Of a stretch of DNA of 55,223 nt, positions 2,138-34,562 are shown piece after piece (within the stretch, counting starts at the first letter, position 1; every line of letters starts with the position of its first letter). The stretch covers positions 1 to 55,223 of the forward strand of contig DATDZB010000005.1 of the NCBI GenBank assembly GCA_035288845.1. Direction: 5' to 3'. A program made the position numbers and the translations under genes. A model generated the notes under the pieces. The model had not been told where the DNA came from. It searched no databases and saw only the letters and a program-made list of their open reading frames with translations. The stretch is from Candidatus Nanoarchaeia archaeon. Lineage in GTDB: Archaea; Nanobdellota; Nanobdellia; SCGC-AAA011-G17; GW2011-AR18.

Positions 2138-2541
2138 ATAATGTAGGTAAAGTACTTAACCAACGCACCCAATCAAGTTTTAGTTCTGAAAAACTAAATT
2201 TTGAGGGTTGTGAGGAAAGTCCGTCCACTACCGTAAAAGGTCTCTTAAGAGGATTACTTACTAAGTAAGTTCCAGTAATGGAAGGAAACCTTAAAGAAAC
2301 GGCACGCCCCATAAGATTGGAATGATTCAGTGAGGGTTTTGGTGACAAAACTTAGATAACCTGTTGACGTCCTTATGGGAAACGATGAAACGAAGGACCT
2401 GATCAGTGCAAGTTTACGAAACACAGGAATCAAACCTGGTTTTTACAACGCTTAGTAGAATGTTAAGACAAAGCATCGCGAGAAATTCAATGTTTTTCGT
2501 TTGGCTTTGACAAAAGACGGCTTACACTTTACCTACATTAT
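2138..2541 (+). ncRNA. rnpB: RNase P RNA, archaeal type A-like
   Basis: GAGGAAAGTCC (2212-2222) and ACAAAAGACGGCTTAC (2510-2525) conserved regions; perfect 16-bp P1 (2138-2153/2526-2541); P12 CCCATAAG/CTTATGGG followed by GAAAC..GAAAC; CGCTTAGTAGAATG motif. Confidence 0.93.
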
Positions 2542-20363: not shown

Positions 20364-21035
20364 ATGGCAATAAAAATTATGGCTCATAGATGTGGTGATT
20401 ACTTTGGACCAGAAAATTCCAAGCAAGCTTTACTAAAAACTCTAAAATATAAACCAGATATTATTGAAATAGATGTAAGAAAAAGTTCTGATGGTGTTTT
20501 ATTTTGTTATCATGGAAATATTTTAGAAGTATTATTTAGTAGATTTTATTTCAACAAACCATTTAAAAGATTACAAGAAAAATACAGATCATTAGTAACT
20601 TTAAGAGAAATTGTAAAAATAATAGGAAATAAATGTGAAATATATTTAGATATTAAAGATAGTAGGATTAATGATAAAGATTTAAAAAATGTTTTCAAAG
20701 GAATAAAAACAAAGCAAGTTTATATTGGATCTGCATTATTTAGTTTTATAGAAAAAATAAAAGTTCCAAAAAAATGGAAAAAGGTAGTAGTTGGAGTAAT
20801 TGATTTTAAAATAAATATTGAAAGGGTAAAAAAAGCAAATATTCGCATGGTTCAATTATTCAAATGGAATTCTACTAAAAAAAATTTAGAAAAGCTTAGA
20901 AAAAATAGTGTTGAATTTGCATTAGCAAGTTGGTTTTTAAAACCGAAAAATTTTACAAAAAAAGCAATTGAAAAAAAGTCTACTTGGGTTTGGGATTATA
21001 ATATTCTAAATTTAAAAAAAAGATTAAAAAAATAA
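20364..21035 (+). CDS. Glycerophosphodiester phosphodiesterase family protein
   Basis: AHR...PENS, EIDVRKSSDG..CYH, YLDIK. Confidence 0.8.
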   Translation: MAIKIMAHRCGDYFGPENSKQALLKTLKYKPDIIEIDVRKSSDGVLFCYHGNILEVLFSRFYFNKPFKRLQEKYRSLVTLREIVKIIGNKCEIYLDIKDSRINDKDLKNVFKGIKTKQVYIGSALFSFIEKIKVPKKWKKVVVGVIDFKINIERVKKANIRMVQLFKWNSTKKNLEKLRKNSVEFALASWFLKPKNFTKKAIEKKSTWVWDYNILNLKKRLKK

Positions 21036-21037
21036 TA

Positions 21038-21181
21038 TGGGCGAGAAGAGATTTGAACTCTCGACCTTTGGCTCGCTTAGCAAAACTTCTGGTTTTTTAG
21101 TTTGTGTACCAAAAGTCGTCATATAAGACTTACATTCATTTTTTAATGATCAATGCTCTAACCAAGCTGAGCTACTCGCCC
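21038..21181 (-). tRNA. trnI-UAU: tRNA-Ile(UAU) with two BHB introns (29/30 and 37/38)
   Basis: Exons 21181-21151, 21129-21122 and 21073-21038 splice to a 75-nt cloverleaf with stem UUGGU/GCCAA and loop CU-UAU-AA; introns of 21 and 48 nt each form a BHB. Confidence 0.88.
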
Positions 21182-21292
21182 ATCTAAAAATAAGCCCCGA
21201 AAAACCTATTTAAGCTTTTTTATTAAGAATAAAATTAGTAATTCTAAAAAACAGCTAAATTTATAAAGAAAACCTTTAGTTCCTTCTGTATT

Positions 21293-21367
21293 GCTCCGAT
21301 CGTCTAGTCCGGCCCAGGATGAAGCCCTTTCGAGGCTTTGACGCGAGTTCGAATCTCGCTCGGAGCA
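21293..21367 (+). tRNA. trnE-UUC: tRNA-Glu(UUC)
   Basis: GCTCCGA/TCGGAGC acceptor; AAGCC-CT-TTC-GA-GGCTT; GCGAG-TTCGAAT-CTCGC; no encoded CCA. Confidence 0.97.
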
Positions 21368-28840: not shown

Positions 28841-30789
28841 AAAAAGAGAAATTATTAGCAGTTAGTATTATTTTCTTAATATTAGTGCCATTAGTTTTGG
28901 CTGAAAATGAACAAATAAATGATTACAATAATTACAATCAATTAACATTAAAATACAAAATAGAAGGCGGTTTTGAACTGCAAAAAACAGGGTCTAATCC
29001 AAATGTAAAAGAAGCAGAAGCAGTTTTAACATTTTTTCCAAGAAAAGATGATATACAAAAAGTACAAACAATTTCACCTTTTTCAGGACCAAATGCAAAA
29101 ATAACACAAAATCCATCAGAAATTAATTATAAGTGGGATAATCCAGCAATAGGAAACTTCAATTTTGGTGTTGACTCAACAATATCTATAGATAATGGTT
29201 TTGTTATAATTAATGAAAAAGTAAATTTTCCATTAGATGAACCAATAATTAATGAATATACAGAAGCAACAGAATTTATAGATATAAATAATGAAATAAA
29301 AGAGCAAGCTCAGCAAATTGTTGCAGGTGAAGATGATGCGTATTTAGCTTCATTTAAAATGGCAACTTGGATAAATAAAAATATAGAATATAATTTAACA
29401 ACATTAACAGCTGAAGTAGTACAAAAATCAAGTTGGGTTCTAGACAATAGAGAAGGAGTTTGTGATGAAATAACAAATTTATTTATTTCTATGTCAAGAT
29501 CAGTAGGAATACCAGCAAGATTTGTTTATGGAGTTTCTTACACAAATATAGGTTATGATTGGGGTCCTCATGGTTGGGCTGAAGTTTATCTTCCAGATAA
29601 AGGTTGGGTGCCATTTGATGTTACATATGGGCAATTTGGTTGGATAGATCCATCTCACGTTAAATTAAAAGTAAAAGCTGATTCAGGAGATGCAACTGTA
29701 AAATATTCCTGGAAATCTGCAGATACACAGCTAAAAGCAAATGAAATAAAAATGAAAACAAATTTAATTTCAAAAGGAAATGAAATAGAACCGCCAATAA
29801 AAATTACAGTTCATCCAATGATTGAAAAAGTAGGTCCTGGTAGCTACGTTCCAATAAAATTAGAAGTAGTAAATGATAATGAATATTACTTTCCAGACAC
29901 ATTTAGATTAACAAAATCTCCAGAATTAATAGAAGAAAATGTAAAACATGTATTATTAAGACCTAAAGAAATAAAACATGAATATTGGATTTTAAAAATA
30001 CCAGATGAAATAGAAGACAGCTATATTTACACAACAAATATAGAAATAGAAGATCAATTCCATAAAAAAGCAATTAGCAAAATAACATATGGAGAAAATT
30101 ATAAAACAGTTACATTAGATGAAGCTAAAGAAATAGTAGCACAAAATGGAGATAGAGAATTAAACACAATTTCTAGAAATATAGAATTAAAATGTCCAAT
30201 AGATAAAGAGATTTATTCATATGAAGAAAGAAATTTAGTTTGTAATATAAGAAATTCTGGAAATATTCCATTAAAAAATTTAAACATATGTTTTACTAAA
30301 GACTGCCAAGTAACAGATTTGGGAATAGCAGAACAAAAAAATATAACATTCCCAATAAATATAAATCCAGGTGAATACATTTTCAAAGTTAAAGCATATA
30401 ATAATGATGTAAGTATAACTAAAGATGTACAAATAAAAATATTATCTCAGCCAAATTTAAAAATAAAAAGATTAGATTATCCTAAAGAAGTCTCATATGA
30501 AGAAAAAATTGAGTTAAAATTATTATTAACAACAGAAGCTGAAGTAAAAGATTTAAAAATTAAAATCGGCGATGAAGAATTTGAAATTTCAGATTTAAAT
30601 AATTTAGTACAAACAAATTTACCAGTTAATTCAAAAGAACTATACTCAATTAACGAAGAGTCATTTGAAATAGAACTGGAATATAAAGACAAAAATAATA
30701 AAAAATACGAAATAAAAGAAAAATATCCAATAAAAATTAATAATGCACCATGGTATGTTAAAGCACTTTCTTATTTAGGATTAATGTGA
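28837..30789 (+). CDS. Secreted transglutaminase-like protein with Ig-like C-terminal domains
   Basis: Signal peptide; triad GVCDE / HGWAEVY / FDVT. Confidence 0.88.
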   Translation: MKKEKLLAVSIIFLILVPLVLAENEQINDYNNYNQLTLKYKIEGGFELQKTGSNPNVKEAEAVLTFFPRKDDIQKVQTISPFSGPNAKITQNPSEINYKWDNPAIGNFNFGVDSTISIDNGFVIINEKVNFPLDEPIINEYTEATEFIDINNEIKEQAQQIVAGEDDAYLASFKMATWINKNIEYNLTTLTAEVVQKSSWVLDNREGVCDEITNLFISMSRSVGIPARFVYGVSYTNIGYDWGPHGWAEVYLPDKGWVPFDVTYGQFGWIDPSHVKLKVKADSGDATVKYSWKSADTQLKANEIKMKTNLISKGNEIEPPIKITVHPMIEKVGPGSYVPIKLEVVNDNEYYFPDTFRLTKSPELIEENVKHVLLRPKEIKHEYWILKIPDEIEDSYIYTTNIEIEDQFHKKAISKITYGENYKTVTLDEAKEIVAQNGDRELNTISRNIELKCPIDKEIYSYEERNLVCNIRNSGNIPLKNLNICFTKDCQVTDLGIAEQKNITFPININPGEYIFKVKAYNNDVSITKDVQIKILSQPNLKIKRLDYPKEVSYEEKIELKLLLTTEAEVKDLKIKIGDEEFEISDLNNLVQTNLPVNSKELYSINEESFEIELEYKDKNNKKYEIKEKYPIKINNAPWYVKALSYLGLM

Positions 30790-30884
30790 GCCTGGAGGGA
30801 TTCGAACCCCCATTAACCGGTCCCTGGCTAAAATATAGATTATATTTTTGAAGCCGATGGTTCTATCCATTATACTACAGGCCC
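30787..30884 (-). tRNA. trnR-UCG: tRNA-Arg(UCG) with non-canonical intron at 35/36
   Basis: 26-nt intron 30849-30824 forms a strict BHB (GGCU/AGCC helix, 8-bp AT stem); mature loop CU-UCG-GA; A20 Arg identity element. Confidence 0.9.
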
Positions 30885-34474: not shown

Positions 34475-34562
34475 TGAGCCCGGAGGGATTCGAACCCCCA
34501 TCCGCAGGTATCTACAAAAAATACCGTAGCCCGCTATTCTATCCAGGTTATACTACGAGCCC
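34475..34562 (-). tRNA. trnR-ACG: tRNA-Arg(ACG) with canonical 37/38 intron
   Basis: GCGGG-CU-ACG-G|14-nt intron 34523-34510|A-CCUGC; BHB central helix CUAC/GUAG; GGAUA D-loop (A20). Confidence 0.92.

Follow-up and report, generated by a model that had tools for sequence, protein, structure and literature searches.

A tRNA-Ile(UAU) gene with its anticodon on an 8-nt exon between two BHB introns in a Woesearchaeota-type DPANN archaeon

Overall organization of the tRNA-Ile(UAU) gene

The window, which is the whole 55,223-nt stretch of DNA analysed in this study, harbors at 21038..21181 on the minus strand a confirmed tRNA-Ile(UAU) gene, in which the anticodon sits on an 8-nt exon between two BHB introns. 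Very probably, it is a functional gene of a small, AT-rich Woesearchaeota-type DPANN archaeon, the product of which reads AUA after splicing of both introns, likely with the intron at position 29/30 leaving first, and replaces the TiaS system.

A search of the window with the Rfam tRNA model (RF00005) gave a match of 46.6 bits, compared to a gathering score of 29, over 21038-21181 of the minus strand and model positions 1-71. The alignment contains an 80-nt insert between positions 29 and 41, in place of 11 model positions. The gene encodes a 144-nt precursor and a 75-nt mature tRNA, with the CCA end not encoded, and all of its parts lie on the minus strand. Exon 1 (21181-21151; GGGCGAGTAGCTCAGCTTGGTTAGAGCATTG, 31 nt) covers tRNA positions 1-29, comprising the 5' strand of the acceptor stem, the D arm and U27 U28 G29, and is colinear with the single-intron orthologues of two genomes of the same family (G005 and G014). 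It is followed by intron 1 (21150-21130; ATCATTAAAAAATGAATGTAA, 21 nt) at position 29/30, and by exon 2 (21129-21122), the 8 nt of which (GUCUUAUA in RNA, GTCTTATA in DNA) correspond to positions 30-37 and hold the whole anticodon UAU (U34 A35 U36, 21125-21123) within the loop CUUAUAA that is the same in the orthologues. Intron 2 (21121-21074, 48 nt) occupies the canonical position 37/38. Exon 3 (21073-21038, 36 nt, positions 38-73) consists of A38, the 3' strand of the anticodon stem GCCAA, the variable loop AGGUC, the T arm, the 3' strand of the acceptor stem and A73.

The spliced 75-nt product folds as a cloverleaf with the anticodon stem UUGGU/GCCAA, the loop CUUAUAA, A37 and the discriminator A73. 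Compared to shuffled sequences, folding of the precursor gave a z-score of -4.66, and none of 200 shuffles was equally good. An earlier note made from the letters of the window had described a tRNA-Ile(UAU) of three exons with the whole anticodon on a middle exon of 8 nt, a 21-nt intron at 29/30 with the helix GCAU/AUGU and the hairpin UCAUU/AAUGA, and a 48-nt intron at 37/38 with the helix CUUA/UAAG. The RF00005 match and the spliced cloverleaf bear out this organization, and all of these elements were located on the minus strand; the sole correction to the description is the strand itself, which the note had left unstated.

Judged by sequence alone, the flanks of the gene carry two putative transcription signals, both on the minus strand. 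A TATA-like box, TTAAATA (21207..21213), lies 26-32 nt upstream of the mature 5' end, the right position for an archaeal TATA box, and may act as the promoter. A run of seven T (21026..21032), 6 nt past the 3' end, may serve as an archaeal oligo-T terminator. ARAGORN detects the gene only in intron mode, and then as tRNA-Phe(AAA).

Architecture of the two splice motifs

The archaeal BHB motif comprises a central helix of 4 bp and two bulges of 3 nt, and is cut after the second bulge nucleotide on each strand (cuts are marked by ↓ below). In the motif of intron 1, the central helix GCAU/AUGU lies between the bulges U28 G29↓A and A A↓G30. It is flanked on the inner side by the 5-bp hairpin UCAUU/AAUGA and on the outer side by the 3-bp helix AGA/UCU (A21-U33, G22-C32 and A23-U31), and intron 1 is a strict hBHBh' motif, with h of 3 bp and h' of 5 bp. 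The motif of intron 2 has the central helix CUUA/UAAG, in which C32-A35 pair with UAAG, and the bulges U36 A37↓U and C G↓A38. Its outer helix has 2 bp (U31-G39 and G30-C40), extended to 5 bp after the removal of intron 1, and its inner side consists of one G-C pair, a 2x3 internal loop and a 10-bp stem. This motif is slightly relaxed, because its h' is a single G-C pair before the internal loop. From their motifs, both introns are predicted to be actually spliced.

Among the intron-bearing matches across the order, intron 2 nearly always begins with N-G-R-C. Its nucleotides 2-4 (21119-21121, minus strand) can pair with G30-U31-C32 (21127-21129), giving a predicted mini-hairpin, GUC UUAUAU GAC, which is conserved across the order.

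Spread of the gene and of the two-intron layout

Scanning one genome per GTDB species with the pattern GTCTTATA-N20-50-AGCCNNRGGTCNNNNGTTCRAATC revealed intron-bearing tRNA-Ile(UAU) genes in at least 120 GTDB species of Woese-, Pace-, Nano-, Micr- and Aenigmarchaeota. Among the matches listed, 114 genes were parsed. The 37/38 intron is the sole one in 86 of them, whereas 19, to which that of the window can be added, are also interrupted exactly at 29/30 by a strict-BHB intron of 16-33 nt. In eight, an extra intron lies elsewhere, mostly within the D loop. With its exact position, the 29/30 intron leaves the same 8-nt exon, and exon 2 is identical in all 19 of the other two-intron genes. One of them sits on the closed 736,802-bp Woesearchaeota chromosome CP066683.1. 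The UAU anticodon and the split layout are typical of the lineage and not a rarity. The earlier note had regarded UAU as a rare alternative, which is overstated in view of at least 120 species with the intron-bearing gene and at least 19 with the layout of 29/30 plus 37/38. No description of this pair of introns in tRNA-Ile(UAU) was found in the literature compared here.

Splicing enzymes and the predicted order of splicing

Neither EndA nor RtcB was found in the organism's own assembly (556,574 bp in 14 contigs, 27.5% G+C, ~70% complete), which is attributed to the incompleteness of the assembly and not to true absence; both enzymes were found in same-genus and same-family genomes. Exactly one EndA match, a single unit of ~200 aa, is present in 11 of 13 relatives. 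The EndA of the same-genus genome G001 has 198 aa and is of the single-unit α-type, with the catalytic α subunit of N. equitans (1e-33) and the α4 enzyme of M. jannaschii (3e-31) as its best relatives in the PDB. It is devoid of the 6-residue insert that precedes the catalytic His in N. equitans α, and is colinear with the M. jannaschii enzyme in this region. No second EndA paralogue was found in G001, G005 or G014 with a query that finds the structural β subunit of N. equitans at 3.6e-14.

Archaeal endonucleases cut strict hBHBh' motifs at any location. Since the 29/30 motif is strict, the gene demands no relaxed endonuclease specificity. The broad-specificity splicing endonuclease that had been suggested from the sequence thus finds no support, with an EndA of the single-unit α-type, no paralogue and a strict motif at 29/30.

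The two motifs have C32 and U33 in common: U31-C32-U33 take part in the outer helix of the 29/30 motif, and C32-A35 in the central helix of the 37/38 motif. In their strict forms the two motifs thus exclude each other, and the precursor must refold between the two rounds of cutting. We applied constrained folding to the full precursor and to the precursor minus intron 1. In the precursor of the window, the core 29/30 motif lies 0 kcal/mol and the strict 29/30 motif 3.8 kcal/mol above the minimum, compared to 14.0 kcal/mol for the 37/38 motif, a gap that drops to 6.9 kcal/mol once intron 1 is removed. Similar predictions hold for the other two-intron genes. In the full precursors, the core 29/30 motif lies 0-4.3 kcal/mol and the 37/38 motif 6.8-22.8 kcal/mol above the minimum free energy (MFE) in 19 of 19; after removal of intron 1, the 37/38 motif lies 0-7.3 kcal/mol above the MFE in 18 of 19.

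In the MFE fold of the window precursor, the D arm is paired with the 3' end of intron 2 in place of the 37/38 motif, so that an order based on energies is merely suggestive. The segment concerned (21074-21085, minus strand), which covers the 3' end of intron 2 and the start of exon 3, GCUAAGCGAGC, complements the 5' strand of the D arm and the D loop, GCUCAGCUUGGU (21161-21172, minus strand). This pairing of 11 bp dominates the predicted MFE fold, and the gene of the same-genus genome shares ~10 bp of it. Going by these models, the pairing could act as a decoy in folding or simply accompany the UAAG splice helix as its by-product, and it may be absent in cells.

Taken on these predicted energies, the 29/30 intron is most likely removed first. 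Ordered splicing, already put forward in the earlier note, is accordingly plausible as a prediction, with two motifs that compete for C32/U33 and energies that favor 29/30 first in 19 of 19 genes. The order may nevertheless be absent, if a relaxed EndA removes both introns from one conformer or if the 37/38 intron goes first, a course of events that we consider possible but rather doubtful. A conformer with both central helices can indeed be drawn at -29.6 kcal/mol, with the central helix and inner hairpin of intron 1 and no outer helix, but it is predicted to lie 16 kcal/mol above the MFE. Kaneta et al. link α4 EndAs that carry an extra 'L3' loop in Woese-/Pacearchaeota to heavy disruption of tRNA genes (PMC5829648), which would favor such flexible cutting. 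Against it stand the predicted gaps of the 37/38 motif in full precursors and their decrease in 18 of 19 genes after the loss of intron 1.

We retain the ordered pathway as our proposal. Transcription from the minus strand would yield a precursor of ~144 nt, from which EndA would excise both BHB introns, and the RtcB ligase would join the exons of 31, 8 and 36 nt. The precursor would refold between the two cuts, with the 29/30 intron leaving first. Once this intron is lost, the anticodon stem could close and present the canonical 37/38 motif.

AUA decoding and the TiaS system

The AUA codon is used at 33.1 per 1000 codons, corresponding to 38% of the Ile codons, which makes it the 10th commonest codon, nearly twice as frequent as AUG. 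Apart from this gene, the one Ile tRNA found in the assembly is an intronless tRNA-Ile(GAU) on contig 6, identical to the spliced UAU tRNA at 52 of 75 positions. No CAU tRNA, including tRNA-Met(CAU), was found on the 14 contigs of the ~70%-complete assembly, where all matches were noise; the tRNA set is therefore incomplete or hidden by introns.

The TiaS_FLD domain (PF08489) had no match at E<=1 in the organism's own ~70%-complete assembly. As this assembly is incomplete, the absence of TiaS and tRNA-Ile(CAU) in this genome rests on its relatives. In 41 genomes of the order, representing 17 families and including 25 high-quality genomes of at least 90% completeness, TiaS_FLD was found in none, compared to four of four archaeal controls. 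This result supports the earlier suggestion that AUA is decoded without TiaS. Such UAU decoding has been reported before, in ARMAN and N. equitans (PMC3239211; PMC6000648): in ARMAN-2, -4 and -5, tRNA-Ile(UAU) is present, TiaS and tRNA-Ile(CAU) are absent, and the UAU tRNA was proposed as the decoder of AUA (PMC3239211). In the present archaeon, the mature tRNA would likewise read AUA directly and replace the agmatidine (TiaS) system, which is absent from the order. We infer that this tRNA is charged with isoleucine, and any modification of its U34 would be of the same standing.

It is very unlikely that the tRNA, spliced as predicted, shares this task with a second decoder, either because the missing part of the genome (~30% or more) carries the genes for a TiaS-type enzyme and a tRNA-Ile2(CAU), or because TiaS is too divergent for the Pfam model. 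The size of the assembly, 0.56 Mb at 70% completeness, compared to 1.2 Mb for a genome of the same genus, leaves room for such genes. In addition, CAU tRNAs from two other families, at L034 (genome G035) and L038 (genome G039), are closest to the UAU tRNA among non-orthologous sequences and have the same U31-G39 anticodon stem (CCGGU UUCAUAA GCCGG). However, G035 and G039 are also without TiaS, as are all the genomes of the order that were searched, most of them of high quality. Since G039 has a UAU gene as well, its CAU tRNA is best read as an elongator tRNA-Met, and the ARMAN precedent argues in the same direction. To judge from this resemblance in sequence, the UAU tRNA itself may have originated from an elongator tRNA-Met or from a former tRNA-Ile2(CAU).

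Orthologues and covariation define the splice junctions

All site pairs with a 4-bp helix and 3-nt bulges were enumerated in the precursor. Such pairs are frequent by chance in this AT-rich sequence, and the criterion of helix plus bulges is too permissive, so that flanking helices, product geometry and orthologues are required in addition. Flanking helices, together with a product in which a 5-bp anticodon stem closes and U33 is present, are found only for the pairs 29/30 and 37/38.

BLAST searches with the spliced sequence against 40 relatives revealed three informative orthologues, in G001, G005 and G014. In the gene of G001 (same genus), both introns are present, with lengths of 21 and 46 nt, and exon 2 is identical. 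In its intron-1 splice helix, U27-A is replaced by C27-G, with a compensatory change of the mature partner A43 to G43, and the inner hairpin of its intron 1 is ACUCU/AGGGU instead of UCAUU/AAUGA. The genes of G005 and G014 (same family) have the 37/38 intron only, with an uninterrupted GGTCTTATA, then the intron and then AGCC; their anticodon arm reads GAGCA AUGGU CUUAUA, followed by the intron and by A GCCAU. These single-intron orthologues fix the order of the exons and the anticodon independently of the motif rules.

Covariation was analyzed in an anchored gapless alignment of the 19 two-intron genes. L124 was excluded from this set since its '29/30' call is a false parse, whereas L145 was retained, in both the covariation and the energy totals, despite its poor fit to the 37/38 register. 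The 29/30 motif is 97.1% paired, compared to 82.4% in shuffles, and has 30 doubly changed cells, compared to 8.7 expected; neither value was reached in any of 500 shuffles. When the partners were slid by 1-3 columns as controls, pairing fell to 18-53%. The pair 26:(j-4) is G-C in 11 genes, A-U in six and unpaired in none, and the inner hairpin of intron 1 has 4-5 pair types at each position. The 37/38 motif together with the anticodon stem is 92% paired. Support for the junctions is above the level of chance, as shown by the sequences of the single-intron orthologues and the covariation at 29/30.

These data leave little room for other junctions or another anticodon, such as a tRNA-Phe(AAA) with one 48-nt intron or a reading of the CAU triplet inside intron 1, which we regard as highly improbable. 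Such readings could draw on the ARAGORN call in intron mode and on the many chance helices of the precursor. Yet a complete motif together with a 5-bp anticodon stem and U33 occurs solely at 29/30 and 37/38, GGTCTTATA runs without interruption in the single-intron orthologues, covariation collapses once the partners are slid, and ARAGORN errs likewise on the neighboring tRNA-Arg(UCG) gene. It is scarcely credible, too, that two insertions have broken the gene and left it an unprocessed, decaying pseudogene, to which its invisibility to standard finders might point, given that at least 19 other species retain the architecture, with both exon-intron helices showing compensatory substitutions, that the gene encodes the sole AUA decoder seen for so common a codon, that the TATA-like box and the T-run are intact on its flanks, and that most tRNA genes of the genome have 1-3 introns.

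The 37/38 intron as a constant companion of the UAU anticodon

Of 201 genomes of the order, 57, from 38 genera, carry the intron-bearing form with the same anticodon arm, and none carries the intronless form GTCTTATAAGCCNNRGGTC, searched with identical exon constraints. Nor did 401 high-quality genomes of the phylum yield a genuine intronless copy; the single match to the intronless pattern, L180, was rejected as it is not a tRNA. By contrast, tRNA-Ile(GAU) is intronless.

In eukaryotes, the intron of nuclear tRNA-Ile(UAU) is needed for the pseudouridines at positions 34 and 36. There, as here, UAU always comes with a 37/38 intron that pairs with the anticodon, but the eukaryotic endonuclease measures the distance from the mature tRNA body, whereas the archaeal one relies on the BHB. 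A ΨAΨ anticodon is mentioned for eukaryotic tRNA-Ile (PMC6000648). By analogy, the 37/38 intron might be an obligate partner of UAU in this phylum: a duplex of intron and anticodon would direct modification of U34/U36 that guards against misreading of AUG, and the 29/30 intron would impose an order that keeps the anticodon exon in the duplex until late. We consider this idea speculative and, on balance, unlikely.

Comparison with known systems

The closest known counterparts are the tRNA-Ile(UAU) genes of ARMAN-2, -4 and -5 (Fujishima et al. 2011, PMC3239211). Like the present archaeon, they belong to DPANN, encode UAU, have a 37/38 BHB intron that pairs with the anticodon, and are devoid of TiaS. 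In ARMAN-2 (Ca. Micrarchaeum acidiphilum), this intron was cut in vitro; however, the gene has one intron, of 25 nt, and the endonuclease is a three-unit ε2 enzyme (PMC3239211), compared to a second strict intron at 29/30 and relatives with a single-unit α-type EndA here.

UAU isoleucine tRNAs are also shared with N. equitans and Ca. Korarchaeum cryptofilum, the gene of the latter being intron-bearing. In a survey of 167 archaeal genomes they were the only two with UAU and were treated as isolated gains (PMC6000648), whereas the gene described here is lineage-wide, in at least 120 GTDB species. Multi-intron tRNA genes are described in Thermoproteales (Sugahara et al. 2007, 2008, as cited in PMC4090602) and in DPANN and Asgard archaea (PMC5829648); as here, they have 2-3 BHB introns, some of them non-canonical, and are missed by standard finders. 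Thermoproteales are a different lineage, however, with an (αβ)2 endonuclease that carries a Crenarchaea-specific loop, compared to the α-type here. Moreover, the tRNA-Ile(UAU) of Mycoplasma mobile also belongs to an AT-rich reduced genome that has lost its C34-modifying enzyme and reads AUA by UAU (Taniguchi et al. 2013, PMC3575796), but this tRNA is bacterial and intronless, and the enzyme lost is TilS in place of TiaS (PMC3575796).

Other tRNA genes and RNA elements of the genome

Several further RNA genes are present in the window. At 30787-30884 (minus strand), ARAGORN calls a tRNA-SeC(tca). A selenocysteine or suppressor tRNA at this site was rejected, as removal of a 26-nt intron at 35/36, inside the anticodon, restores UCG and gives a tRNA-Arg(UCG); this intron is a perfect hBHBh' motif with the central helix GGCU/AGCC, the bulges UC↓A and AG↓G, and an AT inner stem of 7 bp. 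A tRNA at 34475-34562 (minus strand) has a canonical intron of 14 nt (CUAC/GUAG, bulges GG↓U and AU↓A), the removal of which gives the anticodon ACG. Arginine tRNAs with A34 are unusual in archaea. A tRNA-Glu(UUC) gene at 21293-21367 (plus strand) lies 111 nt from tRNA-Ile(UAU) and is divergently transcribed. In G005 (L048), the Glu and Ile(UAU) genes are arranged head-to-tail with 2 nt between them, and an intron interrupts the Glu gene; the two genes are thus neighbors in both the window and G005, but their orientation differs. The archaeal RNase P RNA (RF00373, 110.7 bits) lies at 2146-2533 (plus strand).

Most tRNA genes of the genome have 1-3 introns. Five extra multi-intron tRNA genes, missed by ARAGORN and Rfam, were exposed as GC-rich islands in intergenic DNA at C1:58275-58425 (plus), C1:62433-62570 (plus), C2:21955-22110 (minus), C9:37760-37880 (minus) and C9:58750-58895 (minus). 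They comprise a Gln(UUG)-like gene with three inserts, a Thr(UGU)-like gene and others with T-loop introns, and a Lys(UUU)-like gene. A regular expression for the T arm plus acceptor stem, used for a census of tRNAs, returned 12 genes along with many AT-rich false positives, and the Rfam search of the whole genome, in batches of ~145 kb, was less sensitive and found fewer tRNAs than the search of the 55-kb window. In addition, a GC-rich intergenic repeat of ~40 nt, AAAAAG(C/G)(G/C)TTACGCG...GTCGTGTCGT, is present in at least five copies (C1:89750-89790, C14:3757-3797, C9:2283-2320, C9:8935-8970 and C1:21908-21941) and could be a small RNA or a regulatory element.

Implications

Because standard finders miss or miscall the Ile(UAU) and Arg(UCG) genes, automated annotation of such a genome would lead to the false conclusion that an AUA decoder is missing or that a stop codon is recoded. 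The reading of AUA by UAU, known from a few DPANN genomes, is found here to be lineage-wide in Woesearchaeota-type archaea that are devoid of TiaS. The series of genes, comprising among the matches listed 86 with a single intron, 19 that add the one at 29/30 and further ones interrupted in the D loop, is suited to the study of intron gain and loss, and could show how one α-type endonuclease copes with two mutually exclusive motifs. Finally, the constant presence of the 37/38 intron raises the question of its role in modification of the anticodon.
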